Shown here: one piece after another, positions 1,170 through 28,895 of the stretch
Layout: each line of letters starts with the position of its first letter
How positions within the stretch are numbered: position 1 is the stretch's first letter
Source of the DNA: a virus
Taxonomy: Duplodnaviria; Caudoviricetes
DNA length: 31,307 nucleotides
IMG/VR virus record: IMGVR_UViG_3300032332_001006
Span: 1-31,307 of that record
Strand: one strand, 5' to 3'
Made by a program: the position numbers and the translations under genes
Notes under the pieces: generated by a model
What the model saw: the letters and a program-made list of their open reading frames with translations, nothing else
What the model was told of the DNA's origin: nothing
Database searches by the model: none

Positions 1170-1610
1170 TTGAAGTTTTTTCATGTCAACTGCTGTGAAT
1201 GCAGAAAACATGCCTGCGGGATTGGCGGCCGGAGTGCTCACTACGCTGATGTCATAGATTTCGGTTACCCTGGCAAAACGATCGCCCGCTATTTGTTCGG
1301 GTACTCCGCTAAAGGTAAGAGAAAGGCCAAATCCTTCTGGCAATACGTTGGCTAGGTGCTGAACAAATTGCGCTTCGTTGGTGTTAAACAATGTTAAATC
1401 ACCCATGAGGCGATCGCCTTCGATCTTAAAGCCGTCGATATATCCGAGGATGCCAGAGACTTCTGCGCCGTGGCCCATAGTCACTTTGATGCGCTTCATG
1501 GTAAGCGCCACTGCCAGAGCTTGTTCTAGTGAAGTTTGATCAATCAGCAGGTTGTGCCCCTTGGCCTCGCCTACTGTTAAAATTGATACGTTAGAAAGTT
1601 TGTTGGCCAT
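663..1610 (-). CDS. Prohead protease (HK97/S78-like) fused to a C-terminal scaffold domain
   Basis: N-terminal motifs MGH, GLSLTF and DISVVSTPAANP; Ala/Pro/Glu-rich C-terminal half; between portal and capsid. ATG 1610 preferred as start. Confidence 0.78.
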   Translation of the reverse strand: MANKLSNVSILTVGEAKGHNLLIDQTSLEQALAVALTMKRIKVTMGHGAEVSGILGYIDGFKIEGDRLMGDLTLFNTNEAQFVQHLANVLPEGFGLSLTFSGVPEQIAGDRFARVTEIYDISVVSTPAANPAGMFSAFTAVDMKKLQMNEAPVEVKKELSEPAVVATPAPEAPAVATPAVVEAPKAELAELPADKPVEKMAEPTLVDVVGMLTALSEKMDSMIALQKADIAGEQSEEAGEAPAVPAEDMAKPYGMSAKSDEQTSTTLEKAKADAAGAVAVPAESSQPLGRAEILNQFNAEKNPARRSELLRKLGL

Positions 1611-1622
1611 GCTGGCCAACGG

Positions 1623-1629
1623 GTGTCAA
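1623..1629 (-). promoter_or_regulatory. TTGACAC late-gene start motif (protease)
   Basis: 12 nt between motif and ATG 1610; recurs before other late genes. Confidence 0.65.
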
Positions 1630-1630
1630 A

Positions 1631-2140
1631 TCAGTTTCGGCTGAAGATAGGATTGCGTGAAACGGGGTCTGCGGGATCTGGAAAGATTGGGTTGTAGACG
1701 GCTTGCCCAGGTTCGGGTGGGGTGTTCAAATCGTGCATCGCCATCTTTATGGCTACGGCTAGGGCTTCAGCCTCATCCATTTTTTTCATGTACAGCATTT
1801 GATTGTTTAAGCCGCCAAACTTTAGCTCAACAAAAGGGCGTGATGACCCACGTATGGCAAGCCAGCAAATGCCAATAGAGCCTAGAAATATAGTAGAGCC
1901 TGTAAGAATCCAATCTTGTGAAAATAAAATGCCACCCATTAATAAGCCAAAGACCCCAAGCAAAAACCACATTAACCTAACAATCATTCCGCTGTTATCC
2001 CGGCCGTGGCTAACCCCGTGAATTGTTGCTAAGTTATAGGCTTGGTTATATGGATTACCCAAAGTAACCATGTTTTTAGTCACAATAATTTTGTCGTCGT
2101 AATAGTAAATCGTGCCTGTATCTGGTGAATTACCGCTCAC
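1631..2140 (-). CDS. Membrane moron protein, DUF6232-like
   Basis: YYYDDKIIVT...YNLATIHGV N-terminus followed by two TM helices; visibly AT-richer than its neighbours; inserted between portal and protease. Confidence 0.65.
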   Translation of the reverse strand: MSGNSPDTGTIYYYDDKIIVTKNMVTLGNPYNQAYNLATIHGVSHGRDNSGMIVRLMWFLLGVFGLLMGGILFSQDWILTGSTIFLGSIGICWLAIRGSSRPFVELKFGGLNNQMLYMKKMDEAEALAVAIKMAMHDLNTPPEPGQAVYNPIFPDPADPVSRNPIFSRN

Positions 2141-2146
2141 GCCCTA

Positions 2147-2174
2147 ATCGTATGGGCGGATGGTGTGCATACAA
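2147..2174 (-). promoter_or_regulatory. Sigma70-like promoter for the moron (leaderless)
   Basis: TTGTAT-16 nt-TACGAT-6 nt-GTG(2140). Confidence 0.55.
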
Positions 2175-3812
2175 CTACTTTTTGCGGGTAGTTCTTGATT
2201 TCTTGTCTTTTAACCCGACGGCCTTGGCAACCATATCCAGCTCTTTAGAAGAGAGGTTAAAGTCTGGATCGTCTTTCATTGTAAAGGATTCGGATAATAC
2301 TTCCTTAACGCTTTCTTGTGCTTTAGCCACCAGCTCCGCGTCCGGCCCAGCGTTCGGATCTTTTTCTGGATTAATTGGCGTGGGTTCGCCGATTGCGGGT
2401 GCTTCTTTGACTGCTTCAACCGGGGCCGCCACGTCGGTCTGCGGGGTTACGGTTCCGATTGATGCGATGAATTCCCGTTCCTTTGCGATCTGCCTAACCT
2501 GCTCTTCCCAGTCCTGTCCTAACTCCCCAAAGTACCCCTGAAGCGAGGATAAGCCCGCTTTATAGTCCTCTCGTGCCTGCTGTGCCTCTCTACCTGCGTC
2601 CACGGTCAGCGACTTCGGAGTCTGCCACGTTACCTTTGCGTAATCCTCGACGGCCGGTAGATTACCGTTGGCGATTGCTCCGCCAATGAAGTAGCGCCAT
2701 GCACGATTGCAAAATCTGTCGATCAGTAGGCGTTGCCGTTGTTCAAATCTGCGCTGGGCTTTCGCTACAATAAACCGCATCCCTGCCCCGCCGACGCTGG
2801 CTGGGTCGTAGACAAACTCAACGGGCAACCCGAGGCCCATGGCCACGTCACGAATTAGGAACTTGGCGAAAGGTTCAAAGCCAGCGTGGGGCCGATTAGG
2901 CCCAATCATCTCAATCTTTTCCCCAGGTGAAAGGCGTGGGATGGTCGCAGACGATGTGATCTCCTCGCGGGCGATGGTGCTTTCACCGCTGTCCTGCGCC
3001 TGCACGGTTCCAAAGAATCCGCCCTGCCCAGCCAGCTCGTCGCCTTGGTCGGTGGTAATCACTGCCGCAATCGATCCCTGCAATTTCAAAGCGTCCTTTT
3101 CAAACTCGCCTAGCATCTTTAAATCGCGGACGTGGTTTAGTGCGCGAGCGAGTGAAGAGCCGCCACGAATCTGATCGGGCCGTTCCAGCTCCATTAAATG
3201 AATGACGGTATCTGCACCAAGCTTTCGGTACAGCTCGCCCGTCTGAACTAAGTATCCAGTAGGCTCGCCGAGCTTGCCGAGGAACACGCCATCCGATGTT
3301 CCGTAATCATCGCCTTCGCAAACGCGGTGGCCTTCGACAATTTGTAGCTTTGCCTTTTCCGTCATAATGACAAATACGTCGCCGTCCACGTCGATCGATC
3401 GCGATAGTGCCAGCAGCATGTCTGTCCAGGTCATGCGCCCCGTAACTTCGGGCGACGGTACTACCACGTCGCGCCAGTATTCCTCGCACATTCTGCCAAA
3501 GTCCTGATCTACTCCGCGATACTGCGGCCGGAGTCCTGGCCCGATTGAATATGTGGCGATCGAATCCACCGCGCCTTTAATCAGTCCCACGTTGCGGTAC
3601 ATGTGCCGTGCGAGCTTGAGCAACTCAACCCGTGTCGCTTCGTTTAGGTCTAGCCGTGAATCGCGGGCATGGGCGCCGTAAATGACGGGGCGCTTACGGG
3701 AAAAGCCTGCGCCCTCGTAGGGTTGAAACGTGCTGATGCCTGCGCCAAATCCAGCGCCAAACGCTTTAATGCCTGCGCCCATCCGAGCCACGAGTGAAAG
3801 TTTCTGTGCCAT
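2175..3812 (-). CDS. Portal protein, lambda family
   Basis: ARHMYRNVGLIKGAV, DGDVFV, RPDQIRG and RDVAMGLGLPVE motifs; follows terminase and head-tail gene. Confidence 0.9.
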   Translation of the reverse strand: MAQKLSLVARMGAGIKAFGAGFGAGISTFQPYEGAGFSRKRPVIYGAHARDSRLDLNEATRVELLKLARHMYRNVGLIKGAVDSIATYSIGPGLRPQYRGVDQDFGRMCEEYWRDVVVPSPEVTGRMTWTDMLLALSRSIDVDGDVFVIMTEKAKLQIVEGHRVCEGDDYGTSDGVFLGKLGEPTGYLVQTGELYRKLGADTVIHLMELERPDQIRGGSSLARALNHVRDLKMLGEFEKDALKLQGSIAAVITTDQGDELAGQGGFFGTVQAQDSGESTIAREEITSSATIPRLSPGEKIEMIGPNRPHAGFEPFAKFLIRDVAMGLGLPVEFVYDPASVGGAGMRFIVAKAQRRFEQRQRLLIDRFCNRAWRYFIGGAIANGNLPAVEDYAKVTWQTPKSLTVDAGREAQQAREDYKAGLSSLQGYFGELGQDWEEQVRQIAKEREFIASIGTVTPQTDVAAPVEAVKEAPAIGEPTPINPEKDPNAGPDAELVAKAQESVKEVLSESFTMKDDPDFNLSSKELDMVAKAVGLKDKKSRTTRKK

Positions 3813-3814
3813 AA

Positions 3815-4108
3815 TCAGCTATCCAAAATGTAAGAAAATGATGCGCTGGTGCGTGTGACCTGTACGCCGTTTAAGTAATCGATTGCGGCCTGAAATAATT
3901 CAACCCGTTCGGTCGGTTTAAGATCAATTTGGAAGCTGGCCGACTGCCCACCCGCTGAAGATCCAACCAGAGCACGGCCTGATGCTGCGCCCGTCATTGC
4001 CGCGTTGCGGTCAGTGGCAAGGTTGGTCAGGGCGCTTGCGGTAACCCCAGAGGCTTGTGCCAGGTAGTTCGTCGCAACTGCCCGCGTAAGTCTGCGGGAA
4101 ATAGCCAT
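3815..4108 (-). CDS. Putative head-completion (gpW-position) protein
   Basis: 97-aa ORF between terL and portal, as lambda W. Confidence 0.55.
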   Translation of the reverse strand: MAISRRLTRAVATNYLAQASGVTASALTNLATDRNAAMTGAASGRALVGSSAGGQSASFQIDLKPTERVELFQAAIDYLNGVQVTRTSASFSYILDS

Positions 4109-5856
4109 CACGTCGCCACGGGTGTCAACGATTCCTCATCTAGTGAAGCGGTCGGCCTAATGACTTTTCCGTACACGGCAAAGCCAGCCAGATATGTTTC
4201 GCAATCGTATAAGTGATCCTGCCTGCTTTTGATTCGTATCCATTCGTAGTGATCGCGCCCCGTCTTGCGGTTAATCCGATGCACCTTTTTGTGACTGCTC
4301 ATGTGCTCGCGGTAATCTGGGCTTACGTCGTGTGCAATTTCCCAGCGTGGCCCCTGCCCTCGTCGCAACCACGCCAGCATATCCTGGCAAGCTGGCGAAC
4401 TGAGAAGCAGAAGCATGCAGCCCGCGTCTGTGGGTTGTTCGGCTGAGTGTACTGACTTCATCCGCCCGCGTGGCGTTTCGATCCAGTAGGCTGGGCGTTC
4501 TTCGCCCTTCAATGCTTTCCACTTGTAGCGGGCACAGCATCTATATGAATCCTGCGTCTCATAACCTGAATCTAAAATTGTGTGCTGCGGTTGCACTCCC
4601 AACTCATGCAAGTGTTGCGCCACGTCCTCAATCGTTCGTGCCCGGCCTTCGTCAATCAGCCTACTCGTTCCATCCCTAGCGAATGCTCTTACTACAAACC
4701 AATACTCGTCGATTTGTCTGTCTATGGCCGCAAGTTTGATATGTTCCGTTTCCCAATTCTGCTTTTTGGCAAATGCACCCGCTGGAATGTCGACTGTTTT
4801 ATCATCATCAAACTGATCTTCCCATGGCATCGCGCTCCATCCGTTCACGAATCCTTGCAAGCCGTGTAGGTAATGCTTTTGAGTTAGGAACTGTTTGGCG
4901 CAGTCGGCAAAGGTGACGGTCGGCGAGTACCAGCTAGGCAGTCGCATGCTTCGCCTGCCGCGTTCTGCGTTTGGATTTGCTGTCACCCACTTGCCCTGCT
5001 CTACGGCCGATCGCCTGTGGCCCTCAGTCCACGGCTCGTTGCACTTTGTGCAATGGTAGGCGGCCGTCTCGCCGACTTTCTGTAAATCCCATTTGCCGTC
5101 AGGATTGCGTGCGCTATCCGCCCACCGCACTTGCCCGAACTCCATCGCCTGCATTTCACCGCAAGCATGGCAAGGCACGTGGAAAGTTTCCTGCGTTCCT
5201 GCTTGATAGTTTTGCCAAATGTCGCCAGTCGAAAGCGTGGGCGTGCTAGTCAGCACGTGCTTGCGGTTGGGGAAAGCCTTTGTCCGTTCCAGCGCCAGAT
5301 TGTAAGCGGCCGCCTCGCGTTCGGTCGGTGGCGCAAACTTGTCCAGCTCGTCCAGCACTGCAATGCAGATCGGTCGCGAGCTAATGTTGGCCGGGCTATT
5401 CGATCCGACCAGGCTCAGAGTCATGCTGGTAAACTGCATCTCTAGGATTTTAAAATCGTCGCTATCGAATGGAAACAGTGCCCGCACCGGCTTGCACTTC
5501 TCAAAGATCGGAGTAAGTCGCGTTTCGCTGTAGCTCCTAGCCAGATCGGCGTTAGGCATTACGAGCAGTGCTGGCGCTGGATCGTTTGCGATTCTGTACG
5601 CCAGCCAGATCGCAAGAGTCAACGTTTTGCCTGTCTGCGATCCCCAGCAAAGGCTGACGGTATGGACGCCCGGATCGGCCAGTGCTTCCAGTACGCCCGC
5701 CACGTAAGGCGTATACTTGGTTGAGTAAAGACCTGGTCGAGCGGTGATCCTGCTATCTAGCTGGATGTTCTTTTCTGCCCACTCGATGACGGACGGCGGT
5801 GGTTCAAAGTTCCAGCGGTCGCGTTCGCGTTTGAGTAGCTGTTCGGCCGCCTTCAC
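4108..5856 (-). CDS. terL: Terminase large subunit, lambda GpA family
   Basis: Walker A GSQTGKT, Walker B VLDELD, STPT, CxxC pairs, and nuclease motifs IDRQ, LDSG and DHLYDCETY. Confidence 0.95.
   Translation of the reverse strand: MKAAEQLLKRERDRWNFEPPPSVIEWAEKNIQLDSRITARPGLYSTKYTPYVAGVLEALADPGVHTVSLCWGSQTGKTLTLAIWLAYRIANDPAPALLVMPNADLARSYSETRLTPIFEKCKPVRALFPFDSDDFKILEMQFTSMTLSLVGSNSPANISSRPICIAVLDELDKFAPPTEREAAAYNLALERTKAFPNRKHVLTSTPTLSTGDIWQNYQAGTQETFHVPCHACGEMQAMEFGQVRWADSARNPDGKWDLQKVGETAAYHCTKCNEPWTEGHRRSAVEQGKWVTANPNAERGRRSMRLPSWYSPTVTFADCAKQFLTQKHYLHGLQGFVNGWSAMPWEDQFDDDKTVDIPAGAFAKKQNWETEHIKLAAIDRQIDEYWFVVRAFARDGTSRLIDEGRARTIEDVAQHLHELGVQPQHTILDSGYETQDSYRCCARYKWKALKGEERPAYWIETPRGRMKSVHSAEQPTDAGCMLLLLSSPACQDMLAWLRRGQGPRWEIAHDVSPDYREHMSSHKKVHRINRKTGRDHYEWIRIKSRQDHLYDCETYLAGFAVYGKVIRPTASLDEESLTPVAT
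4122..4128 (-). promoter_or_regulatory. TTGACAC late-gene start motif (gpW-position gene, upstream of portal)
   Basis: 13 nt upstream of ATG 4108, inside the 3' end of terL. Confidence 0.6.
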
Positions 5857-6344
5857 AGCGCGGCCTGCACTTGTCGCATTACTTGCCCCACCTCGTTCTC
5901 GACCTCTTTCTGGATCTCGGCGGCTGGCCTATGGGCGCAAATAGGTGCTAGGCGCTTAGGCATGCCAAGTAGTAGCGGGATTAGTGCGTTAGTCCTGCGT
6001 GCCAGTATCTTGTCTGCCTCGTCGATCGGCACCATTTTGCCCTCCGCCTCGTTAATGTCTGGCCGATCGCCCTTCATTTTTCGCAGTGCCTCAACGACGC
6101 GAGTGTAATCGCCTATCAGTGACGAACGCTCCGGCCCGCTTGCCTCCTTGGCTGCCTCGCCCAAAGTGGCGGCCAACGATTCCAGCCGATCGATCTCACC
6201 GTCCAATCCTATCCCGGCGATCGGCTTCATCGGCTTTGCAGTCGCAACCGCCTGCCCCTTCTCAAGCTGGCGACGGGCCTGCCGCAAACCGACGCCGGTA
6301 GCGGCGGCTTGAGCGAGGATTGCGGTGTTTGGTCGGCGTCCCAT
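5853..6344 (-). CDS. terS: Terminase small subunit (putative)
   Basis: N-terminal HTH-like segment and C-terminal LLGMPKRLAP typical of Nu1-like proteins; GTGA-coupled to terL. Confidence 0.7.
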   Translation of the reverse strand: MGRRPNTAILAQAAATGVGLRQARRQLEKGQAVATAKPMKPIAGIGLDGEIDRLESLAATLGEAAKEASGPERSSLIGDYTRVVEALRKMKGDRPDINEAEGKMVPIDEADKILARRTNALIPLLLGMPKRLAPICAHRPAAEIQKEVENEVGQVMRQVQAAL

Positions 6345-6457
6345 AACGTCATTCAATGTTTTTGCGTAAAACTCAAGAAATTACCGAATGTCTATGCCAT
6401 CGCGACAGGTTGCAAAAATTTAAAAGATTCCTTAGGCACTTACGCAAGCTGGCCTAC

Positions 6458-6922
6458 CTAGGCCGCCCCCCGCAGGTCGTTGTACGCCTTCACGATCGGC
6501 TCGGCCTCCGCTAGGAATTGCTCCTTCAGCGCCTTATCCTGGGCAATAAATTTTGCGCCTCTCGACGCAAGCCACTGCCTTGCTTTCATAATAGGAAACA
6601 GGAAGTGCTTGGGTTCGCTTGGCTCGCTCATCGTGATGGGGTCGGGCAAAATGCCGATGCGTAGGTAAGTCTGACGCATAAGGCTTGGATCTGCATCGCC
6701 ACTGCTCAGTCGCTTCTGAGTAGCTGCGACTTTCTCATATCGTTTGCCAACCTCCTCAGTAATCCCTGCCTCCTCACATATCGCCTGCACGTCTTTGCCT
6801 TCAGTTCGTGCTACTGCAATGATCTCGCCAGCGTCAGATGCCAGTGAGATCGTCCTGCCTACCAACTCAATCGCCTTGTCTCTCGTTTCGTTTAGTTTGT
6901 TTATTACGGATAGTAATTTCAT
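6458..6922 (-). CDS. Hypothetical protein (weak DUF3102-like resemblance)
   Basis: 154-aa ORF overlapping the upstream gene; AGEII...GKRYEKVA pattern. Confidence 0.6.
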   Translation of the reverse strand: MKLLSVINKLNETRDKAIELVGRTISLASDAGEIIAVARTEGKDVQAICEEAGITEEVGKRYEKVAATQKRLSSGDADPSLMRQTYLRIGILPDPITMSEPSEPKHFLFPIMKARQWLASRGAKFIAQDKALKEQFLAEAEPIVKAYNDLRGAA

Positions 6923-7392
6923 TTCTTAATGCCTTTCTTTAGTGCGGCCATATTAAATTTAGGCGCTTCACGCCGCCGCTTGGCGTGGACGCGGTATGCC
7001 CGTTTACGGTAGGACTCGCGGGCCTTCTCGCTTTTCTGCGATCGTGCTCGAATACCTAGCCGGTCATAGACTTCTGTGACTTTCTTGCTGATCGCCTGCT
7101 TAGTGATGCCGTAACGCTTGGCCACGGCCGTCATTGATTCAGGCGAACGGTTAAGAGATATGTTTAAAACCGCATGGCCCAGCGTGTCCGTTCGGTTGGC
7201 CATAGCCGGGTGATCGGCAGACTTATCCATTAGGTGCTCTATCACTTTTGTGATAATCGCAACCGTTGAGGTGGTGACCGTAATCTTTAGGTCATCGCAT
7301 GACTCAAAGACCAAGTCTTGCAAGCTATCGATCATGGTAGCGGGATGCGGAATGACCGCTGGTATTCGTTCGATTGCTTCCTGATCTATCAT
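6919..7392 (-). CDS. HTH DNA-binding protein (sigma region-4-like), candidate late regulator
   Basis: SMTAVAKRYGITKQAISKKVTEVYDRLG helix-turn-helix and basic C-terminus; lies between ori and packaging genes. Confidence 0.65.
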   Translation of the reverse strand: MIDQEAIERIPAVIPHPATMIDSLQDLVFESCDDLKITVTTSTVAIITKVIEHLMDKSADHPAMANRTDTLGHAVLNISLNRSPESMTAVAKRYGITKQAISKKVTEVYDRLGIRARSQKSEKARESYRKRAYRVHAKRRREAPKFNMAALKKGIKK

Positions 7393-7406
7393 ATTAAATT
7401 AAACTC

Positions 7407-7540
7407 GTTAGTGCAGTCGTTAGTGCAGTAATGGAAATGGTGTAATGCATTAGTGCAATAATAGGCCCTAAAGGGCCTTTATTACTGCACCTACATGCTC
7501 CGCAATACTGCACTAGTGCAATAAGGGTTACTGCACTAAC
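7407..7540. repeat. Putative replication origin with direct and inverted GTGCA(G/A)T repeats
   Basis: Seven copies in a non-coding gap directly downstream of the primase-helicase, with a central AGGCCCT/AGGGCCT hairpin. Confidence 0.75.
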
Positions 7541-7541
7541 G

Positions 7542-9497
7542 TTAAAAGGGCTCATTTGTCACCTTTTTGCTGAATAAACCAGCCTCAGTTTCTTCGATCA
7601 AACCGTCCTCTTTTGCCTGCTTCACACGGGCCTTCGCTTGCCGTTCCTGCAACCCGGTGGCTTGTTGTACAAATGCGACCACTTGGCTGTATTTAGCCCT
7701 TTCGGGTAACTTGCCCCAATCGATCGACATGGCCTTTCGGCCTACCGACTTTTCAGGCGCTCCCACTTCAATCCATGCCATTCCCCGGTCGGCATGCTTT
7801 AGGTGTACTAACGGTTGCGTCTTACTGGCAATCAAATCGCTCGCAGTAACGCTAGGACGCAAGCCAGACCGCTTTCCGCGCTTGGTTACCTCAAGCTTAT
7901 ATGTGTACGTTCCTTGCTCATCCTGACCGCAAGGAGACAGCATTAAAACGGCTCTTGCCCAATTCGTAAGCTCACTCGATCCAAACCCGCTGTAAGCCTT
8001 GTCGTGCCCCTGATAGCCACTGCCATCCCGTGTTGGCTTTGGCGTATGGTGCATCAACATCCACGCCCATCCTCCTGATAACGCAAGCGGGTTAAGCAAA
8101 TTACGCAAAAAGCCACCTGCCGTCTCTTGGCTAGATAAGTCGCCACCGATAAACGCAAGCAACGGATCTACCCAGGCTAAATCAGGCTTATGCTTATCAC
8201 CCAGACGACGCATCCTATCGACGAACCGCTCCCCCGTGGACGTACAATCACGCACGATCACAATGTTCTGCTTCACGCGCTCCAACTCCTCTGCGGTCAG
8301 ATCCAGCGCCCTTAAAATGCCCTGCAATGCCTCCGCCACATCACCTTCATCGTTCTCGGCTTGGACGATCAGCGACTTCAACGGCTTACCGTGCGGGCTA
8401 ATGCCAAACAGATCACGCCCGGCCGCCCAAGTGATAGCGGCCTGTAAGCACAGCACGCTTTTCCCAAGCCCGCTACTTCCCACCCACAAAGCGGATCCGC
8501 CACGGCAAATCCACCGCTTGCCGAGCAGTTGCGTTATGTCGGCATCTTCCTTGAAATTTACCAACTGCTCCCAGCTGTACGGCTCAGGAATATCACCGTA
8601 AATTGTACGCTCTTGCCACTCCATGTAAGTCAGCGTTGGTGCGCCACATTCGACTAACTCTTGCTGATTACCTGTGGCCGTCCTCATCGCACCGGGCAAC
8701 CTCGACAGCCTGCCTGCGTCCTTGTTTGCTGGATCGGGTTTGCTGTGTTCTAAATGCTTGTAAATAAAATCTACACGCTCGGCAAACTCCTTGGCATTGG
8801 CTGCCCGAATCTCCACCCACGCATGCAGACTGCGTGCCCCGCTCTTAATGATCGACGACGTAGGCAAACCGCTCCGCTTAATTATCGCCCACTGCTCTTG
8901 CAAAGTGCTTTCATCAAACTCAATCAGGCAATGGCGAAACTTGGTGATTGATTCGGCTTTGCGGTTCTTGCCGTTGTTAGCGTTAATGGAGACGTAGACT
9001 CCCACTGCATCGCCCTGCCATTCCTTCAGGCCATCGCCCTTAAACAGCTCTAGCCATTCCTCTCGGCTTCGAGTCTCGCCTGCACCGTCCGGCCGCTCTC
9101 GGTCGCCGTCTTTAATGGATCTTGTGATATTTATGAAATCGCCCACGTCAAAGCAGGTGGTCAGAAACTTGTCGACCGGCCCACTTTCCACGCTTATCGG
9201 CATAGGCGGCACTGGCAAATCCTCCCTCACGATGGCCCCGTTCTGATAGGCATACTTGGCTTTTGGTTTCCACGGCTCCCTAGCTGGCTTGCTGTAAGCG
9301 GATTTTACAGCTGCCACGCACTCCTTTTGCGTTAGCCCGTTCTTATCACCCCATAATTCAGCCTCACACTCCGCATCGAACTGCGACAAGCCTTGGTCAC
9401 GGAACTGTAACGCCATGCGGAACAGTTGTGTGTTGCGCTCACCTTCAGGCGCTCCGTTGTAGTAAACGGCCTCGGTAGCTGGTGGCAGTACAATCAT
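7542..9497 (-). CDS. Primase-helicase (PriCT-like, RepB-type primase, AAA_25/RepA-like helicase)
   Basis: GERNTQLF helical domain; IEFDE...SGARSLHAW...RLSRLPG primase motifs; GSSGLGKS Walker A, WVDPL, MHHTPK and GSSEL. Confidence 0.88.
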   Translation of the reverse strand: MIVLPPATEAVYYNGAPEGERNTQLFRMALQFRDQGLSQFDAECEAELWGDKNGLTQKECVAAVKSAYSKPAREPWKPKAKYAYQNGAIVREDLPVPPMPISVESGPVDKFLTTCFDVGDFINITRSIKDGDRERPDGAGETRSREEWLELFKGDGLKEWQGDAVGVYVSINANNGKNRKAESITKFRHCLIEFDESTLQEQWAIIKRSGLPTSSIIKSGARSLHAWVEIRAANAKEFAERVDFIYKHLEHSKPDPANKDAGRLSRLPGAMRTATGNQQELVECGAPTLTYMEWQERTIYGDIPEPYSWEQLVNFKEDADITQLLGKRWICRGGSALWVGSSGLGKSVLCLQAAITWAAGRDLFGISPHGKPLKSLIVQAENDEGDVAEALQGILRALDLTAEELERVKQNIVIVRDCTSTGERFVDRMRRLGDKHKPDLAWVDPLLAFIGGDLSSQETAGGFLRNLLNPLALSGGWAWMLMHHTPKPTRDGSGYQGHDKAYSGFGSSELTNWARAVLMLSPCGQDEQGTYTYKLEVTKRGKRSGLRPSVTASDLIASKTQPLVHLKHADRGMAWIEVGAPEKSVGRKAMSIDWGKLPERAKYSQVVAFVQQATGLQERQAKARVKQAKEDGLIEETEAGLFSKKVTNEPF

Positions 9498-10726: not shown

Positions 10727-11151
10727 TTCATCACCTCCACCATCGCTACCTTCGGCAACCGCATCGCGTTAAACTGCTTTTCACTGGCTGCGAATACGTC
10801 CACTACAGGCAACTTGCCACCGCTCGCCTTTTTGCTCTTAACTGCCGTGCCCGTATCCACAGCCACCCACTCCCGCTTCGCGCCCATAACGCGGATCTTT
10901 GACCACAACGGAATGATGTCTGGATCAACGGCGCAGTGACGACCAGCACGCAACCTGGTGCCAGTGCTCGATTGATAGCGGCTGCTCCACTCGTCCTCAC
11001 CCGGCCAGTAGCCAGTGATACGCACTTTAATTTTCTTAACGTCGATCTTTTTTGACTCTGGCCGTAGATCGATCATCACGTTCGATGCCTGCGTCACTGG
11101 GAACCCAAAGAACGCCAGAAACGTAAGCACTACGTTGCAAAGCGCCCTCAT
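10723..11151 (-). CDS. 3D-domain protein with an N-terminal signal or anchor
   Basis: ITGY...AVDPDIIPLWSKI...AVDTGTAVK...VDVF, with the three conserved Asp. Confidence 0.82.
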   Translation of the reverse strand: MRALCNVVLTFLAFFGFPVTQASNVMIDLRPESKKIDVKKIKVRITGYWPGEDEWSSRYQSSTGTRLRAGRHCAVDPDIIPLWSKIRVMGAKREWVAVDTGTAVKSKKASGGKLPVVDVFAASEKQFNAMRLPKVAMVEVMK

Positions 11152-15465: not shown

Positions 15466-15571
15466 ACGCCTTGCATACGCACAGACGGCGTATTAGCAAT
15501 ACATTTCTTTTTGAGCATTAACTTTTGAAGTTATACTTGAATGCGTAATAAATGCGTATAGAATCCTCCCA
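15464..15571. promoter_or_regulatory. Divergent promoter/operator region
   Basis: Rightward TTGAAT-16-TAGAAT-7-ATG; leftward TTGCTA-16-TATGCA-6-ATG (weaker); five GCGTA(T/A) boxes, including two pairs repeated at 11 bp. Confidence 0.7.
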
Positions 15572-15715
15572 ATGAAGAAGGCGAAAACGAACCTTACAAT
15601 CGACCCCAAAGTTAAGCGCAACGGTGAGCGTCTTGCCAAAAAAAGCGGATTATCTCTTTCGGCATATATCACCACGCTGCTCGTTAAAGAGCTGGCCAAA
15701 GAAAATAAACGCTAA
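15572..15715 (+). CDS. Ribbon-helix-helix regulator, repressor-position (47 aa, not in the ORF track)
   Basis: MKKAKTNLTIDPKVKRNGERLAKKSGLSLSAYITTLLVKELAKENKR; leaderless; the only credible plus-strand gene besides int. Confidence 0.85.
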   Translation: MKKAKTNLTIDPKVKRNGERLAKKSGLSLSAYITTLLVKELAKENKR

Positions 15716-18126: not shown

Positions 18127-18133
18127 GTGTCAA
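18127..18133 (-). promoter_or_regulatory. TTGACAC late-gene start motif (lysis genes)
   Basis: 12 nt upstream of ATG 18114. Confidence 0.6.
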
Positions 18134-20448: not shown

Positions 20449-20583
20449 TCATCCCAAAGCAATCGCCAGGGCAACGGCCGTGCCAGTGGTTACGCCTGCC
20501 GCTCCACCGCCACCCGTCACGATAGGCGTGCCTACGGCAACCGTAATGCTGGCAGGCCCGCAGACTGTGGCGGTGATAGGCAT
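20449..20583 (-). CDS. 44-aa Gly/Ala/Thr-rich protein (not in the ORF track)
   Basis: MPITATVCGPASITVAVGTPIVTGGGGAAGVTTGTAVALAIALG; TAATG-coupled. Confidence 0.55.
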   Translation of the reverse strand: MPITATVCGPASITVAVGTPIVTGGGGAAGVTTGTAVALAIALG

Positions 20584-20918: not shown

Positions 20919-20933
20919 ACTTCTGGATGGCAA

Positions 20934-20940
20934 GTGTCAA
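20934..20940 (-). promoter_or_regulatory. TTGACAC late-gene start motif
   Basis: 15 nt upstream of ATG 20918. Confidence 0.6.
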
Positions 20941-20943
20941 AGG

Positions 20944-22578: not shown

Positions 22579-22592
22579 TTAGGGTAAGGTGA

Positions 22593-22599
22593 GTGTCAA
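22593..22599 (-). promoter_or_regulatory. TTGACAC late-gene start motif
   Basis: 14 nt upstream of ATG 22578, immediately after the previous stop. Confidence 0.65.
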
Positions 22600-23160
22600 T
22601 TATAAGGAATTTGAAAGATCAAGCCTAACAAGTTGCCCGGTGGGGTTTCCGCATCCAGAGTTGGGATTTATGCACCTTCGTGTGTTGCTAATAATTACTG
22701 GGAATGCGGCAACCAATCCGGGTATACTATATACAATTCCTACATTATAGTTAAGACTCATATTTAGACCAGTAACCGCAACACATTTGAAAAAGTTTTC
22801 AGTTTCGGTTGCCACGAATGTTGCAACTCCGTCTGGGGCAGGATTTGGCCCCGATGGACAAGTATCCAAATCGCTAAAAATTACATAGTTAAACTTGTCT
22901 TGGCCAAGAAATCCCGGAAATGGGAATGGAACAGTAATAGAAGAAATCGGCTGTAGTGGGGTAGCCCCAGCCGCAACCGGCTGCAAATAGCTCACCCGCG
23001 TACCATCATAATGCGGCTCGACATACATTTTCGTGCCAGCGATTAGCTTATATTGCCGCAAAAGATCGGCCGCATACTCAGTGCGATTGATAATGCTATT
23101 TACTAGATCGGTAGTAAGCCTTGTGCCGCTGGCCACTTTGGACAAGCGAGGCCGGATCAT
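22600..23160 (-). CDS. Tail-associated hypothetical protein
   Basis: 186 aa; AT-richer, Cys-containing C-terminal half. Confidence 0.65.
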   Translation of the reverse strand: MIRPRLSKVASGTRLTTDLVNSIINRTEYAADLLRQYKLIAGTKMYVEPHYDGTRVSYLQPVAAGATPLQPISSITVPFPFPGFLGQDKFNYVIFSDLDTCPSGPNPAPDGVATFVATETENFFKCVAVTGLNMSLNYNVGIVYSIPGLVAAFPVIISNTRRCINPNSGCGNPTGQLVRLDLSNSL

Positions 23161-23384
23161 TGCGTGACTGCGTTAATGACCGCACCTTGTGACGTAAAAT
23201 TGACGGTAATGTTGTTGCCCGCTACTGGCTTTTGACTTTGTGCGACTAGCACCAAATCCTCAATCCGATCAATAATGCTGTTTATGTAGTCGGATGATAT
23301 GCCAACGCCGCTAGGAGTTGCCCGAATTGTGCGCAATGGCTGGCTTTTCCCTGGCAATTTTGGCGGTGAAGGATTTTCAGCCAT
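23157..23384 (-). CDS. Tail-associated hypothetical protein
   Basis: 75 aa; DYINSIIDRIE resembles DLVNSIINRTE of the next gene. Confidence 0.65.
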   Translation of the reverse strand: MAENPSPPKLPGKSQPLRTIRATPSGVGISSDYINSIIDRIEDLVLVAQSQKPVAGNNITVNFTSQGAVINAVTQ

Positions 23385-23388
23385 AACC

Positions 23389-24216
23389 TTAGAAAGAGTA
23401 GTTTACGTCAGAGAATGAGTTTACCCTATTAAAATTAATTGTGCCGTCCGTCTGATAAAATATATCAGTTGCCTTAAAGTATTCTGTAAATTGTTCTTCA
23501 ATCTGATTAAATAGCCCCCTGCGTTGAAAACTGATTCCGCTTTGTACATATCCAGCATAAATCCATTCATCAGACGGGGCGTAAGTAATAATAGGCGGCT
23601 GTGCTATGCCGCCGATGCCGACTGGATTTGCTTTTAGGTATGACTGAAAAGCAAGCGTGGCTGCGGTCTGTACCTCTGAAACGTTTTTGCTTCTTCGATA
23701 TTCACGACTACGAGGGTTGGGTGGCAAAGCAGTTCCGTTTATGCTCGTTGGCATAAGCCTTTTTGTTGGAAGCGTAAGGCTGGTTCCGCCAAGATTAAGG
23801 GAAATATTCCCGCCTTTAAGGGTATCAAATAGGGAATCTTGCGTGATGTACTTTACAACTATGGCCGCATCTGCCCCAAAGACGCCCACACCCGGCTGGC
23901 CTACCGCTGTGATATATGCAGAAGGCAGGCCAGAAGCATAATCTAGGCCAACATAGGTAACGCTTAGATCAGCCAGATCGCCGTCAACGGGGTTTACGGC
24001 CGTCGTTTCAACCAACATCCTAGTGTACTTTGTCGCAGCCGTGGAAAAGCTACTGTGGGTAGTGCCTGAATCCGGCTCTAATAATCCAATATCAGCAAGG
24101 CGAATGGTATAGTTTTCAACCATCGTGACTAATCCGTCGACAGACGTGGATCTTGTGGTTTTGCGAAGGATCTTTCCTCCCGCATTCAGGGTGGTGCTAA
24201 CTATGCTGACTGCCAT
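23389..24216 (-). CDS. Tail protein (distal-tail position)
   Basis: First gene after the tape measure. Confidence 0.6.
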   Translation of the reverse strand: MAVSIVSTTLNAGGKILRKTTRSTSVDGLVTMVENYTIRLADIGLLEPDSGTTHSSFSTAATKYTRMLVETTAVNPVDGDLADLSVTYVGLDYASGLPSAYITAVGQPGVGVFGADAAIVVKYITQDSLFDTLKGGNISLNLGGTSLTLPTKRLMPTSINGTALPPNPRSREYRRSKNVSEVQTAATLAFQSYLKANPVGIGGIAQPPIITYAPSDEWIYAGYVQSGISFQRRGLFNQIEEQFTEYFKATDIFYQTDGTINFNRVNSFSDVNYSF

Positions 24217-24217
24217 A

Positions 24218-25564
24218 TCAATAAGCCGATTTCAGAATCGGTACTCCTAGCTTGTCGTCGATTTTTGTTAAGATATTTGCAACGATTTTCTGCATATCAT
24301 TAAAACTGTTCAGCAAATCCGTGTTTTGTTGCCTTTGCAAATCGCCTTCAGTTTGAGTCAGTGCATTAATTTTTTCATTGTCTCTAAAGCTACGACGTTC
24401 CCCTGGGGTTGCGCCTATGCCAGAAATTAGGGATATATCGGTCTGCCTTTGTTGCTGTTGTCTTTGAATATCAATCTGCCGAATCAGCCCGCCCATGCCC
24501 ATGCGTTCAGCGGCTGCCCTGACGCGGTCTAGGATAGTGCCAGACGCCTCCATTCCTCGCATGACTAGCTCCCTATTTTTGATGGCAGTTTCCTTTTCAA
24601 GCTGAAGGATTCTGTTTTTTTCGTCTCGTGCAAACTCCGCATCCCTAATCATTCGATCAAAAAGAGTTTTATCCCTGCTTGATTCAAGTCTTGCGGCCTC
24701 TTGAATATCGTAGATTTCCTCGTCGTATAATCTCTTGTCTAACTTCTTCTTTTCTTCAACCACGGACGCCATAGCATCGGTGCTTCCAGCAACATCAACT
24801 ACACTTTTTGCTGGATTGCTTGACGCTGCTTTAGTTTGATCAAAGAATTTAATTAGAGGTCTTATGGCGGCGAACCTGGCATAAGATTCTACCGCGTCCA
24901 TAATGGCTGATGCTGTAACTCCAAACACAAGAGTCACAAGATTTTGAAAAGTTTTCAACGAATCGGACAAAGCTGAAAGGCTGGAGATTTGCTGATCTGA
25001 AAATACACCCATTGCGTCGCCTACATTTTGTATTTCTTCTGGCCCCATTTTAAGAGTTTCTAATAACGCTGTAACGCTTTTGCCAGCTACCGCTTGCGCT
25101 TTTGCAAATGCAACCAGCGGATCATTTGTTGCTTTTATGGATTTGCTTAATGCAAAGAAAATTTCTTGCGGGGACATGCTTTTTAGTTGCTCAACACTTA
25201 AACCTATATCTTCAAAAGCTTTTACAAGTCCAGTGTCTCCACCGATTGCTTTACCAGCATTCACAGAAAGCTTATTCATTGAGCTCGCCACGTCATCAAT
25301 TCCAGAACCTGACAAGCTGGCAGCGTTGCCAATCTGCTGAAGGCTGCTTGCGGCTATGCCAAATTTATTTGCAATATCCTGCAGCTGGTCGCCTTTCTCA
25401 ATTGCGCTAGAAAAGCCTGCGATGATTTTGTCGAATGCAAAGGCGCCAGCTATTAAACCACTCGTAGTTTTGGCAAATCGCATTACTGAGGACTGAGCCG
25501 TGGCTAGGCCACGATCAAAGCCGGATGCGTCTAGTGCGAGTTTGGCTGTGGCAACGGCGTCCAT
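24218..25564 (-). CDS. Tape measure protein (short, 448 aa)
   Basis: LALDASGFDRGL N-terminus, helical Ala/Ser-rich body, LQDIANKFGI...LQQIGNAA. Confidence 0.8.
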   Translation of the reverse strand: MDAVATAKLALDASGFDRGLATAQSSVMRFAKTTSGLIAGAFAFDKIIAGFSSAIEKGDQLQDIANKFGIAASSLQQIGNAASLSGSGIDDVASSMNKLSVNAGKAIGGDTGLVKAFEDIGLSVEQLKSMSPQEIFFALSKSIKATNDPLVAFAKAQAVAGKSVTALLETLKMGPEEIQNVGDAMGVFSDQQISSLSALSDSLKTFQNLVTLVFGVTASAIMDAVESYARFAAIRPLIKFFDQTKAASSNPAKSVVDVAGSTDAMASVVEEKKKLDKRLYDEEIYDIQEAARLESSRDKTLFDRMIRDAEFARDEKNRILQLEKETAIKNRELVMRGMEASGTILDRVRAAAERMGMGGLIRQIDIQRQQQQRQTDISLISGIGATPGERRSFRDNEKINALTQTEGDLQRQQNTDLLNSFNDMQKIVANILTKIDDKLGVPILKSAY

Positions 25565-26418
25565 TATAGACCCGCCTTTTTGCGCTCATAATTAGCGATG
25601 ATGGACAGCCTCTTGATCATTTTTATCACCTGTATGTCAATGGACTTCTGGACTGTAGATTTGCTGATTACGTTAGCTATCCATGGGATTGTATTTGTCA
25701 TTGAGATATAGGGCTTCGAGAAAGCGCCTATTACTGCTTTTGAATTATCTACAACACGGCCGCCGCCTGTGTGTCTATATACCCACTTTGGGATACCCCT
25801 GAATCCTCCGAGAATGCCAGCACAGACGGCCCAGCCAGATTTTGCGATACCTACGTTTCCACGTTTTTGTTTGAAGTATCTAGCCAGCTCGGTTTCCTTT
25901 GTTACTACCTGGCGTACAAATTGATTTTTAGGCACTCGCTTATTCTTCCCATATCTTGCGTTATCGTGCGCACTTCCGCGATCAAACTCTCCAATCCTCG
26001 TATATACGTAAGGTTTGTAATTAAGCCTATCAATTAAAGCCTGCGCTGCAGTCTGCGCTCCGATTCCTTTTTTGCCCTTACCGAATGATTTGCCCAGGAC
26101 AAGAGCGGCCAAAGCTGCAGCCGCTTGTTTTGCGTTTTGCGTTTTTGTTTTTCCTATTGGAATTGGAAGTAATCCAATTTCACGTACAGCCGTGGAGCCA
26201 GTTTTATAAACGCGATCAATATCTCTAGTGACGGCCTTCTCACCTATTGCCTTTGCCTTTGCATTCAATCCAAAAGGCTGGGTTGAATTAGCCAAGCTAA
26301 CGCAAAGGGAACGAGCCTGAATCCGCATCTCTTTGGCGGCCTCAAGTTTTGTATTCCCTACAAAAGCCTTTAGAGCTTGTTGCAGTTTGATTGGATTGAT
26401 CGTAAGGCTGGCGCTCAT
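25564..26418 (-). CDS. Basic neck or tail-completion-like protein
   Basis: Lys/Arg-rich, VGIAKSGW motif, in the tail module. Confidence 0.55.
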   Translation of the reverse strand: MSASLTINPIKLQQALKAFVGNTKLEAAKEMRIQARSLCVSLANSTQPFGLNAKAKAIGEKAVTRDIDRVYKTGSTAVREIGLLPIPIGKTKTQNAKQAAAALAALVLGKSFGKGKKGIGAQTAAQALIDRLNYKPYVYTRIGEFDRGSAHDNARYGKNKRVPKNQFVRQVVTKETELARYFKQKRGNVGIAKSGWAVCAGILGGFRGIPKWVYRHTGGGRVVDNSKAVIGAFSKPYISMTNTIPWIANVISKSTVQKSIDIQVIKMIKRLSIIANYERKKAGL

Positions 26419-26630
26419 AGTCCTAACGCTTTCTCCATGTCACGGAGATCCGTGCCAACTACTGCGTAAGGCCGGCGCAACTTGGCCCCGTTCATATACA
26501 TGAAAACGTGCTCGGCCTGATGGACTAAATGCAGCGGTATATCCCATAAAATTGTTTCCATTGACCAGCCCGTCTCTTTTGCCAGGACGAACACGCACGA
26601 GGCGGTGCCGCCTGGCGTCACCCGTTTCCC
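26415..26630 (-). CDS. Tail assembly chaperone, -1 frameshift extension (GT-like)
   Basis: -1 frame downstream of GGGAAAC: LAKETGWSMETILWDIPL. Confidence 0.75.
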   Translation of the reverse strand, partial: GKRVTPGGTASCVFVLAKETGWSMETILWDIPLHLVHQAEHVFMYMNGAKLRRPYAVVGTDLRDMEKALGL

Positions 26631-27001
26631 GGCGGCTGTGGCACGCCAGACGGAATCACATTAACCTTAGGCTTGTTGGATTCGTTTAGAATGCTTGCGA
26701 CTAGAAGGCTGGCCGTATCCCGATCCTGCTCGCTCATTGTCTCAGACCATTCCATTACCTTATCTCGGAATCCTTCCTTATCCCACGCCAGCTTTAGAGC
26801 CGACTTACGATTTTTGGCCAGAAGAATGTGGATATATACAAATGCATATACAAAGAAAATAGGACTATCGGCTTCGTCGCGTACTTGAATCATCAGCAGG
26901 CGACTGCCCTCTGTATATGGTGCCAGTTTTTGATCCTTGAAATATCGATCTGGCGATATGAACGCCTGATCTAATTCTTGTTGTAGGTTTTCTTCGCTCA
27001 T
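26618..27001 (-). CDS. Tail assembly chaperone (G-like)
   Basis: Ends CCG GGA AAC GGG TGA, a slippery site. Confidence 0.75.
   Translation of the reverse strand: MSEENLQQELDQAFISPDRYFKDQKLAPYTEGSRLLMIQVRDEADSPIFFVYAFVYIHILLAKNRKSALKLAWDKEGFRDKVMEWSETMSEQDRDTASLLVASILNESNKPKVNVIPSGVPQPPGNG
26624..26630 (-). other. Programmed -1 ribosomal frameshift heptamer GGGAAAC
   Basis: X XXY YYZ in the correct phase, just before the stop. Confidence 0.85.
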
Positions 27002-27375
27002 AGTTTTTTCAGCATTGCCCGTTTCAACTCTGGGCTGGCTCGCTGACTGACGAGTAAGGTTTGCCCGCCGCGTTGAATGGAAATAATAGGCTCTGCGGAT
27101 CGCATTAAACCGAGGAGAGTTTCCCTATTTTCCAGCGCTGCCCTGACATATCGGATTGGAGATTCTTCGTCTGACTTCATGTTCGCCCAGGTACGTTCCA
27201 TTTCAGCCTTTGCTTCTTCTCCGCCAGATATTGCGAACCAAAACGTAAACTGCTTTTGACCTGTATCCTCTTTAATAATGCAAGTAACAGGATCCATCGG
27301 ACGCAATTTTGCGCCAAAAGCCGAGGCGGCCGCGGCCACCTTTATATTTGTCGTACCCCAAAAGCTATCAACCAT
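26998..27375 (-). CDS. Hypothetical tail-module protein
   Basis: 125 aa, ATGA-coupled to the chaperone. Confidence 0.7.
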   Translation of the reverse strand: MVDSFWGTTNIKVAAAASAFGAKLRPMDPVTCIIKEDTGQKQFTFWFAISGGEEAKAEMERTWANMKSDEESPIRYVRAALENRETLLGLMRSAEPIISIQRGGQTLLVSQRASPELKRAMLKKL

Positions 27376-27388
27376 TTTAGGATCTCAT

Positions 27389-27406
27389 AAAACCCGCCGG
27401 GGCGGG
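27389..27406 (-). terminator. Intrinsic terminator after the major tail gene
   Basis: CCCGCCCCGGCGGG hairpin followed by TTTT on the minus strand. Confidence 0.6.
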
Positions 27407-27754
27407 CTAGCTCATGTTAGGGAATCGAGTCGCCGACACGTCCACGGTTACAAACCCATCCGATGCCTTATTTACCGTGACGCTGTCCACGATGATCTTG
27501 CCGCCAGTGCTGGCTGCGTTGGCCAATGTGCTCAATACTGCTCCGGCCGTGGTGGCATAGGTGCCTGTGATTGTGGTGGAAAAGGCAAAAGTATCAGTAG
27601 CGTTATAGATAGAAACTCCGACCACTTCTCCGCTTGCGTTGCGAACTTCTGCACGTTCGGCATTGCGGGTTTCCGTAAAAGATTGCACAAGGCCACCAGA
27701 TTCCGCAGAGATGCCGAATTGTAGGCCAGAAGTTCCGATTGTTGTGGCTGCCAT
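27407..27754 (-). CDS. Major tail (tube) protein, putative
   Basis: 115 aa, Thr/Ser/Gly-rich, between the terminator-position gene and the chaperones; has its own start motif and terminator. Confidence 0.65.
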   Translation of the reverse strand: MAATTIGTSGLQFGISAESGGLVQSFTETRNAERAEVRNASGEVVGVSIYNATDTFAFSTTITGTYATTAGAVLSTLANAASTGGKIIVDSVTVNKASDGFVTVDVSATRFPNMS

Positions 27755-27769
27755 ATTGCCTTAAATTTT

Positions 27770-27776
27770 GTGTCAA
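27770..27776 (-). promoter_or_regulatory. TTGACAC late-gene start motif
   Basis: 15 nt upstream of ATG 27754. Confidence 0.65.
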
Positions 27777-28219
27777 CTCGCGATGGAATTGGGATATGCG
27801 ATGACTGCGAGCCTGTAGGTGCGACGCATTGTACGCTCTTCGTCGTCGGCCTCTGGTTCAACTGATTCTACCTTGGCATTAAAACAACGGGCAGATCCAA
27901 TGGCCGTAGTTGCGTTTAATCGTGTAGCCAGCGGGCTGGAATTATAAAACACTTGTAATATCTTGGAACATTTTTGAGTGTGTGCGTCCACGGTTGTGTC
28001 GTCATATCTATCATTAACAACAATTTCAACTGGCACGCTAAACACGCCAGATCCTTGCACTGGCTCCTCTGTCCCTAGCGTCGCCTTTATAACAATAGAT
28101 GGTGGCACATTCTCCGTTTTATCGTGCGACAAGTGATACGTCGGCCCGGTAACGGTGGCGGATAGAAGCTCTTGAAAAGCAGCTTCTATCAAACGATCCA
28201 GCATGGTGACGGCGGCCAT
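27773..28219 (-). CDS. Tail terminator-like protein
   Basis: 148 aa, PPSIVI motif, directly upstream of the tube gene; TTGACGT variant 12 nt upstream. Confidence 0.55.
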   Translation of the reverse strand: MAAVTMLDRLIEAAFQELLSATVTGPTYHLSHDKTENVPPSIVIKATLGTEEPVQGSGVFSVPVEIVVNDRYDDTTVDAHTQKCSKILQVFYNSSPLATRLNATTAIGSARCFNAKVESVEPEADDEERTMRRTYRLAVIAYPNSIAS

Positions 28220-28229
28220 AGTTACTAAC

Positions 28230-28895
28230 TCACGTCAACGCGACCAAATTAATTGCTGAAGCACGCCTATAGACAGCTTGTAGTAACGCTTCCTTATTTT
28301 CTGCGCCAATTGTCCAGTTGGCATGATGCAGAGCCATATTAATCGGCGGCAACACGTCAAAGCCAGGTTCCCAAGGGATTCCGTGTTGTAGTCCAAACGT
28401 CCAGAATCTTTCAGGCAACAGTGTGGCGACAATTCCAAGATGCTGAATTCCTGCGTTTAGAGTCCATTGCTCATTGGGGAAATTATGATCATGTAAACCT
28501 ATCCAATCAAAAAGTGATGCAATTTTTTCCGATGCAGTAAAAGCAAGAAAATCCCCGCAAACCGGGCCATGTATATCGTTAATTCCAACGATTTCGTGCC
28601 CAACCAGAGCACGCTCAATCTCGGGCATAAAAGGCGAATAAAAACGAAAATCACAACCACTGCTAACCATGCGACGACCAATGTTTTTCCGAACCTCGTT
28701 GGCCAATACTCGCACTCCTTTTCGCCCCATCTCATTAAAAGATTCTTCGCCAAAGTTACCGCAGTGATAATCTAATTTTCTAATGTTCAGTTCGCAATCT
28801 GCCTCAAGATATTTTGCAAAGCTTGGGAGAAAATGATTATCCATCATGCCTTGATGGCTGGGACTGCACGCGGTCAGCCAAAGCCAAGGTTTCAT
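28230..28895 (-). CDS. Nucleotide-diphospho-sugar transferase-like protein
   Basis: K...SGCDFRFY, NEQWTLN and HHANWTIG...K motifs of GT-A nucleotide-sugar transferases. Confidence 0.7.
   Translation of the reverse strand: MKPWLWLTACSPSHQGMMDNHFLPSFAKYLEADCELNIRKLDYHCGNFGEESFNEMGRKGVRVLANEVRKNIGRRMVSSGCDFRFYSPFMPEIERALVGHEIVGINDIHGPVCGDFLAFTASEKIASLFDWIGLHDHNFPNEQWTLNAGIQHLGIVATLLPERFWTFGLQHGIPWEPGFDVLPPINMALHHANWTIGAENKEALLQAVYRRASAINLVALT

Follow-up and report, generated by a model that had tools for sequence, protein, structure and literature searches.

TTGACA boxes before late-gene starts

The window analysed here is the whole of IMG/VR record IMGVR_UViG_3300032332_001006, a stretch of 31,307 nt from a virus of the class Caudoviricetes, and the element in question is a box, the hexamer TTGACA, which stands a short distance upstream of late-gene start codons. 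All called genes lie on the minus strand. The two ends of the window overlap within the major capsid gene, and the genome (~31.2 kb) is therefore circularly permuted and apparently complete. Its gene content is that of a lambda-like phage, with a gpA-type terminase, a lambda-type portal, a capsid, a tape measure, an endolysin and a primase-helicase; of the 48 open reading frames (ORFs) scanned, none was recognised as coding for an integrase, RNA polymerase or sigma factor.

An exhaustive count found TTGACA eight times on the minus (coding) strand and not once on the plus strand. All eight copies precede an in-frame ATG that belongs to a late gene or to an ORF of the late region, at distances of 13, 13, 14, 14, 14, 15, 16 and 16 nt (Table 1); six of these ATGs head late genes, one is an internal start of the likely protease ORF and one opens a mini-ORF. 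As background, 5.7% of positions in the window have an ATG at box distance. Among the 2,493 hexamers with at least six copies, TTGACA ranks first even when each hexamer is allowed its own best 4-nt window, and order-2 Markov simulations (n=2,300) gave a mean of 0.39 such sites and a maximum of 3. The original prediction had listed nine sites by eye and had stated that every TTGACA so found lies in the late region with an ATG at this distance; counting on both strands against simulated sequence bears this out, and all nine sites are where they were placed. The ninth, at 28238, reads TTGACG and is a tolerated variant of the box; only one of the six coding-strand copies of TTGACG has an ATG at box distance.

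The arrangement recurs in relatives of the phage. Relatives of the terminase occur in 186 viral stretches (identity 78–99%), 80 of which form the close set; there TTGACA stands 216 times on the coding strand and 12 times on the other, the letters of the spacer vary freely, its length is mostly 13–17 nt and GTG can replace ATG. A distant set of 74 loci, with a portal ~38% identical to that of the window's group, holds 321 coding-strand and 65 antisense copies, and the ATGs peak at 14 nt (138), followed by 15 (62), 16 (35) and 17 nt (29); the majority of the 65 antisense copies represent one conserved site. When relatedness was reduced to four non-redundant phage sets (15 of 150, 17 of 74, 39 of 80 and 18 of 51 loci), an ATG followed coding-strand TTGACA at 13–17 nt in 33/46, 76/91, 48/133 and 76/108 cases, against a background of 7–8%. 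In one orthologous gene the ATG has moved from 15–16 nt to 22 nt (locus L503) and 31 nt (L514), and the box has stayed. A two-box scan returned 118 loci, many of which resembled chance matches or canonical promoters (35 loci inspected); for the discovery set 24 of these 35 were picked by hand and the rest dropped, and this set is therefore not an unbiased sample.

Table 1. Boxes and candidate regulatory genes in the window. Scaffold and protease labels follow gene position; the holin and tail-tube labels are provisional.
Feature	Position	Strand	Start codon (distance)	Gene	Matched copies with TTGACA
TTGACA box	1184..1189	minus	in-frame internal ATG 1169 (14 nt)	168 aa, likely scaffold, nested in the likely protease ORF; major capsid gene lies downstream	73/76
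TTGACA box	1624..1629	minus	ATG 1610 (13 nt)	likely prohead protease/scaffold, 315 aa	58/73; some others TTGACG at 16
TTGACA box, within last terminase codons	4123..4128	minus	ATG 4108 (14 nt)	97 aa, precedes portal, likely head-tail joining	95/111
TTGACA box	18128..18133	minus	ATG 18114 (13 nt)	54-aa hydrophobic holin-like ORF upstream of endolysin	3/3
TTGACA box	20935..20940	minus	ATG 20918 (16 nt)	LtfC-like tail protein (PF23926 E 1e-6)	site covered by none of the relatives
TTGACA box	22594..22599	minus	ATG 22578 (15 nt)	544-aa tail-region protein, no family	no true orthologous copy among loci retrieved
TTGACA box	25635..25640	minus	internal ATG 25620 (14 nt)	18-codon mini-ORF	
TTGACA box	27771..27776	minus	ATG 27754 (16 nt)	115 aa, likely tail tube	17/17
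Variant box TTGACG	28233..28238	minus	ATG 28219 (13 nt)	148-aa tail-region gene	0/25; commonest TTGACG or GTGACA
Helix-turn-helix (HTH) gene	6919..7392	minus		157-aa all-helical protein, candidate box-reading activator, two genes before terminase small subunit	
Neighbour gene	6458..6922	minus		154-aa protein, coupled directly behind HTH gene	

The two internal starts have counterparts elsewhere. A nested, scaffold-like internal start is also present in distant phage groups, and the stop codon of the mini-ORF overlaps the tape-measure ATG (TAATG at 25564), an arrangement shared by locus L080. The conserved antisense site of the distant set (L109:9812 and most of L102–L168) lies in a small gene after the terminase and points back at the terminase; it is possibly an antisense promoter or a codon constraint. 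Between the capsid and tail genes, the window carries a large two-domain glycosyltransferase and a neighbour gene (28892–30631 and 28230–28895); orthologues of this region have boxes at 15–19 nt in relatives, and the window copy has none.

Antisense avoidance and the letters around the box

The hexamer is strongly depleted on the antisense strand. In the four non-redundant sets 1, 10, 25 and 8 antisense copies were observed against 31.9, 50.4, 104.0 and 56.7 expected, that is, 44 against 243 over all four groups. Six non-overlapping control hexamers stood at 0.45–1.25 of expectation, and a seventh, TGACAT, which overlaps the box, was low in three sets. With the boxes masked, TTGACA/TGTCAA was the most avoided non-palindromic hexamer of 4,096 (19 against 211), and TTGACC, TTGATA and TTGCCA showed no avoidance; because masking inflates the avoidance on the coding strand, the unmasked antisense counts weigh more, and because the loci are still related, the P values are overstated. 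Avoidance on the antisense strand favours a signal at the level of DNA. If a word is purged from a strand that never becomes mRNA, the most likely inference is that it works at the DNA level and by itself.

TTGACA is the sigma70 -35 consensus, normally followed by a -10 box ~17 nt downstream. As had been proposed for the window, no such box follows: TAnnnT at 16–18 nt was found after 0 of 155 non-redundant boxes, and the single window site with a 4/6 match (AATCAT, after the box at 18133) has it inside the ORF. A canonical start ~30 nt after the hexamer would likewise fall within the ORF. No conserved hexamer was found between TTGACA and ATG, and the flanks are nearly free, with a mild G at -1 and C at +1 of the hexamer. 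An extended -10, in which the TG of ATG would serve as TGn, was rejected because no -10 follows and spacers of 15–19 nt break the geometry. A pyrimidine directly precedes the start codon at 83 of 100 boxes with spacers of 13–14 nt, compared with 388 of 843 roughly called non-box starts.

The claim that box starts mostly lack a Shine-Dalgarno sequence (SD) also held. None of the nine box starts of the window has one at -4 kcal/mol, whereas 14 of the 33 non-box starts have one of -5 or stronger (9-nt anti-SD; 3 of the 33 positions lie off the start codon), and in the pooled data 18/155 box starts and 225/843 others reach -5 or better. At 1602–1620 on the minus strand a perfect 8-bp hairpin lies over ATG 1610 in a read-through RNA and is absent from a leaderless one. 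Hairpin occlusion of start codons as a general rule was rejected, as pairing at box starts does not exceed that at other starts (mean unpaired 0.49 versus 0.46 and 0.54).

The HTH family, phage P8625 and the likely host

The protein encoded at 6919–7392 belongs to a family of 426 clusters (E≤0.001) with a conserved HTH followed by a basic helix, and with the motif GxSMTxIAxxxGVTRAAxSK..LGLxxSRxMKSxxARxxYR. Its predicted model is all-helical (pLDDT 83.7) and supersedes an earlier one built from 17 rows (pLDDT 67). Matches to known proteins are weak. The family profile touches regions 3.2–4 of RpoD, SigA and RpoS at E 0.02–0.7, hhalign gives the sigma comparison a probability of 22 (p 1e-3) and PF04545 is found in 5 of 104 members; sigma region 1.2/2 is matched in 1 of the 104, which is not the window protein. 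The predicted model weakly resembles KorA, LysR, sigma-4 and AlpA structures (E 0.28 or worse), a chain of the AlpA complex having the highest query-normalised TM-score shown (0.29, E 0.78). The second-best PDB sequence match of the family profile, also weak, is the HTH of the TipsytheTRex immunity repressor (E 0.021, 20 positions). The Pfam and PHROG families of known phage late activators gave no match.

The family and the boxes occur together. Of the distant loci, 16 extend 4.2 kb or more upstream of the portal, and 15 of these contain a syntenic homologue. Two sets of loci retrieved solely by homology to distant family members, the first being a temperate-type group, carry boxes heading ORFs of at least 45 aa in 65/80 and 47/51 cases. 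Across 116 redundant loci, the region upstream of the HTH gene holds 4 TTGACA in 627 kb and the region downstream 204 in 704 kb. The claim that the signal is confined to late genes was upheld for the window's phage group and not for the temperate-type relatives, in which boxes also head some genes that resemble replication or DNA-metabolism genes by sequence. The factor gene itself contains TTGACA in 63/73 and 15/15 copies of two groups, in different codon contexts, and in six loci of the fourth group TTGACA stands at the ordinary 29 nt before the factor gene's own ATG. Of 84 distinct ORFs tested directly behind the HTH gene, 24, spread over the groups, encode homologues of the 154-aa protein, and the L147 equivalent weakly matches DUF3102 (E 0.002); this protein is possibly a second component. 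Some close relatives carry in the early region a second, truncated copy of the C-terminal half of the HTH family (L006:5577–5984, L052:5561–5818).

The cultured Verrucomicrobia phage P8625 (NC_029047), similar to the window in size and gene order, served as a control. An HTH homologue was not found in it (best E 0.026). As in the window, TTGACA heads genes in similar positions, for example the gene before the portal, but it stands 30 nt before four annotated starts; one further copy has ATGs at 13 and 29 nt, neither of which is its annotated start. Antisense TTGACA is not avoided (6 versus 7.9 expected). The 30-nt spacers contain a near-palindrome of ~16 bp, GTATC...GGATAC/GAATAC, with no clear TAnnnT (L475:5412–5447, 10736–10771 and 15558–15593). 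Because its removal would yield the 14-nt layout, P8625 may represent a related or ancestral state. The original guess that the 6919–7392 protein has to do with the boxes gains support from its co-occurrence with them and from this control.

The source is an uncultured lake phage, and its host quite probably belongs to Verrucomicrobia. The closest terminase of a cultured phage is only 31% identical, and the HTH protein and the protease have no match among cultured phages. The only direct pointer to Verrucomicrobia is one HTH-family homologue recorded under Chthoniobacter flavus: locus L445 carries a factor homologue and a box, and its factor protein is recorded under a cultured strain of that species. 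Assignment from bacterial genomes was rejected. The sole genome-contig match, L081, lies in G001, a mixed bin where one of the four polymerase-beta matches is virus-like; its 121 pattern matches against 39 in controls say nothing about the host, and a factor search of 131 genomes from its phylum gave 3 matches, of which G001 had the best. Nominally the representative of a bacterial species, G001 contains several phage contigs (L092, L247–L249) and a virus-like RNA polymerase gene. Source names attached to relatives (Caulobacteraceae and Gammaproteobacteria metagenome-assembled genomes) were judged to be binning noise.

Three further features of these genomes were noted. In the pooled loci L001–L243 the palindromes TTCGAA, CAATTG, CATATG and GGTACC and the words GGWCC/GGNCC are strongly avoided; they are probably restriction sites of the host and usable for host prediction. 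Many contigs of close relatives start ~545 nt upstream of the terminase start, which suggests a fixed, cos-type genome end near window position 6400. Between the primase-helicase and HTH genes (7405–7550) there are direct and inverted repeats of the TGCACTAA/TTAGTGCA type, with perfect 14-nt arms 96 nt apart, likely a replication origin or an operator cluster.

How the box may act

Given the word, its distance from the start codon, its strand and conservation, its avoidance elsewhere and its co-occurrence with the HTH family, the box probably functions as a promoter, and this promoter may well depend on the HTH protein. Taken as one statement, a compact late promoter together with the HTH protein is the reading that we favour as fairly likely. 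Host RNA polymerase would first make early RNA, including the message for the HTH protein, which, possibly together with the 154-aa protein, would attach to the hexamer and recruit polymerase, so that the DNA would open ~14 bases further downstream with no -10 box involved; alternatively, it might reposition the host sigma. The hexamer would then lie at about -20 to -15, transcription would begin on the start codon or up to ~3 bases before it and the resulting mRNAs would be leaderless or nearly so, which would account for the missing SD. Internal boxes would boost single modules: scaffold and capsid, the gene after the terminase, the tape measure through its coupled mini-ORF, the tail tube and lysis. 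The boldest version, in which a family of ~160 aa with a sigma-4-like HTH replaces or repositions the host sigma and TTGACA at -20 to -15 suffices by itself as a promoter, with no -10 box, is more doubtful, and we offer it tentatively.

One line of support is suggestive. In an earlier study, a pyrimidine at -1 followed by a purine at +1 (Y|R) marks start sites in all four species examined (PMC4782308). A step of this kind, resembling a start site, lies 13/14 or 14/15 nt after the hexamer at 26 of 32 long-spacer discovery sites (null 15.9, p 6e-4), at 9–10 of 12–14 sites of the fourth group (p 0.02–0.06) and at 22–23 of 30–32 held-out sites when pooled (null 16–17.7, p 0.012–0.03), so that replication in the held-out sets is weak.

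Several observations weigh against the favoured reading. The Y|R step gave 16/21 against 12.6 in the first held-out set (p 0.09), with 7/11 for spacers of at least 16 nt (p 0.28); pooled, such spacers remained non-significant (p 0.09–0.19), and discovery sites with a 15-nt spacer showed no excess (5/12 against 5.4). The test was set up after the data had been seen, a purine at position -3 relative to the ATG partly confounds it, and the orthologues that it draws on are not independent. Many spacers are G+C-rich and would be hard to melt without a -10 box. The terminase, portal and capsid starts of the window have no preceding box, and other signals or read-through must therefore exist. The 6919–7392 protein has no significant family match and no fold match at E≤0.001; its gene lacks a box in the window's group (0/99 close copies), the partial box-bearing contigs L248 and L249 show no factor match, and the link between factor and box consists of co-occurrence among related phages and the one negative control, P8625. 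The RNA data are assembled contigs, from which start sites cannot be mapped, and hence they were not used as evidence: two runs contained 5% of the searched words; the contigs of run X1 map to capsid, scaffold, single-strand-binding-like, holin-like and tail genes of relatives. One contig stops at 1147, which is 22 nt within the scaffold start, and another continues for 77 unlike letters past 1145.

The original prediction had offered two possibilities, a phage-specific promoter or an SD-independent translation signal. The second, in which the ribosome or an RNA-binding protein of the phage would read UUGACA on the RNA, is in keeping with the loose distance (13–19 nt), as for a ribosome-binding site, and with a strand-specific box that replaces the SD. 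It lost ground to the antisense counts, since nothing would require a signal in RNA to be lost from the antisense strand, and boxes persist where the ATG lies at 22–31 nt and before the overlap-coupled start at 4108; we now hold it to be very improbable. The promoter alternative gained from the same avoidance, from the pyrimidine at -1, weakly from the Y|R step and from the boxes kept at 22 and 31 nt. The box could instead be a promoter type of the host lineage, read by the unmodified host sigma, with the HTH protein incidental. Its word is the exact primary-sigma -35 consensus, the recognition helix of the factor (TRAAVSK/TKQAISK) is unlike sigma's TRERIRQ and the layout is common to several phage groups. 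Nevertheless, the 30-nt distance in P8625, the 29-nt distance before six factor genes and the near absence of boxes from early regions make this unlikely, as do the standard -35/-10 promoters of Akkermansia, which has ~10% leaderless starts (PMC4782308); leaderless translation is known in the likely host phylum.

A related question is whether the HTH protein starts transcription at all. Bound to TTGACA beside start codons, it could act as an operator-bound roadblock, similar to the stoperator systems, that silences or times late genes. The recognition helix of the TipsytheTRex repressor (TRQAVS, compared with TRAAVS here) matches weakly, avoidance on both strands also fits a DNA-binding site, and stoperators contain TGTCAAG, the reverse complement of CTTGACA, and are mostly intergenic and in one orientation (PMC5712189). 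The box is only 6 bp with almost free flanks, however, whereas the TipsytheTRex repressor needs more than its 13 bp (PMC9283540, whose accessible text does not state which half of the site the HTH reads). Nor does a roadblock call for a distance of 13–17 nt, a pyrimidine at -1 or an in-frame internal ATG, and it leaves the translation of genes without SD unexplained, so that we think this explanation unlikely too. Least probable of all is that the boxes are loading or pause sites for a Q/AlpA-like antiterminator encoded at 6919–7392. The gene does lie between replication and terminase genes, as the lambda Q gene does, and just upstream of the late operon, as is typical of Q/AlpA, and the AlpA-loaded complex is among the weak fold matches; that match is non-significant, terminator-like sites are no commoner than in shuffled sequence, and an antiterminator is loaded a single time for a whole operon, not gene by gene at the start codons.

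Among known systems, the box system works like activator-dependent phage late promoters. Late activators encoded beside the terminase include RinA/ArpU, P1 Lpa with its -22 element, Mu C, T4 gp55/gp33 and lambda Q/AlpA; as proposed here, a small and often terminase-adjacent phage factor turns host polymerase to late genes, but these systems keep a -10-type element, which the boxes lack. To our knowledge, TTGACA lies ~30 bases upstream of the start in all sigma-70-type promoters, and melting there depends on a -10 box. The boxes share the exact TTGACA with canonical sigma-70/sigma-A promoters (8/8) and differ in lying ~14 nt instead of 29–30 nt from the ATG, with no TAnnnT, and at only 157 aa the HTH protein lacks region 2, the part of sigma-70 factors that binds core and melts the -10. 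Thermus phage Lalka27a (bioRxiv 10.64898/2026.04.20.719267) likewise has gene-by-gene late promoters with one conserved hexamer, uses host RNA polymerase and has no recognised phage sigma or RNA polymerase, but its word is a TANNNT-type -10 box (TAGGGT) 6 nt before the start site and not a -35 hexamer 13–17 nt before the start codon. The stoperators of L5 and TipsytheTRex are likewise asymmetric, single in orientation, mostly intergenic and contain TGTCAA/TTGACA, but they have a 13-bp consensus and a repressor with two DNA-binding domains, repress elongation and, in the accessible text, are given no fixed distance to the start codon (PMC5712189, PMC9283540); the boxes share the single orientation at gene junctions and lack a 13-bp asymmetric consensus. 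The boxes are thus neither canonical sigma-70 promoters nor Lalka-type -10 boxes nor 13-bp stoperators. The layout was not described in the literature searched on TTGACA or leaderless late promoters and on Verrucomicrobia phages and prophages, within a limited coverage of subscription journals. The antisense avoidance and the candidate factor are new here.

If the proposed reading is true, a six-base promoter at half the usual distance would reveal that bacterial RNA polymerase can have DNA placed and opened on it in a manner new to science. In the boldest version it would be a minimal mode of initiation 1.5 helical turns shorter than any sigma-70 promoter and spread across Verrucomicrobia phages and integrated elements. 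One hexamer and one protein of 157 aa would then make a very small orthogonal expression switch. For abundant freshwater phages, the box would also serve as a sequence rule by which true starts and nested genes can be recognised.

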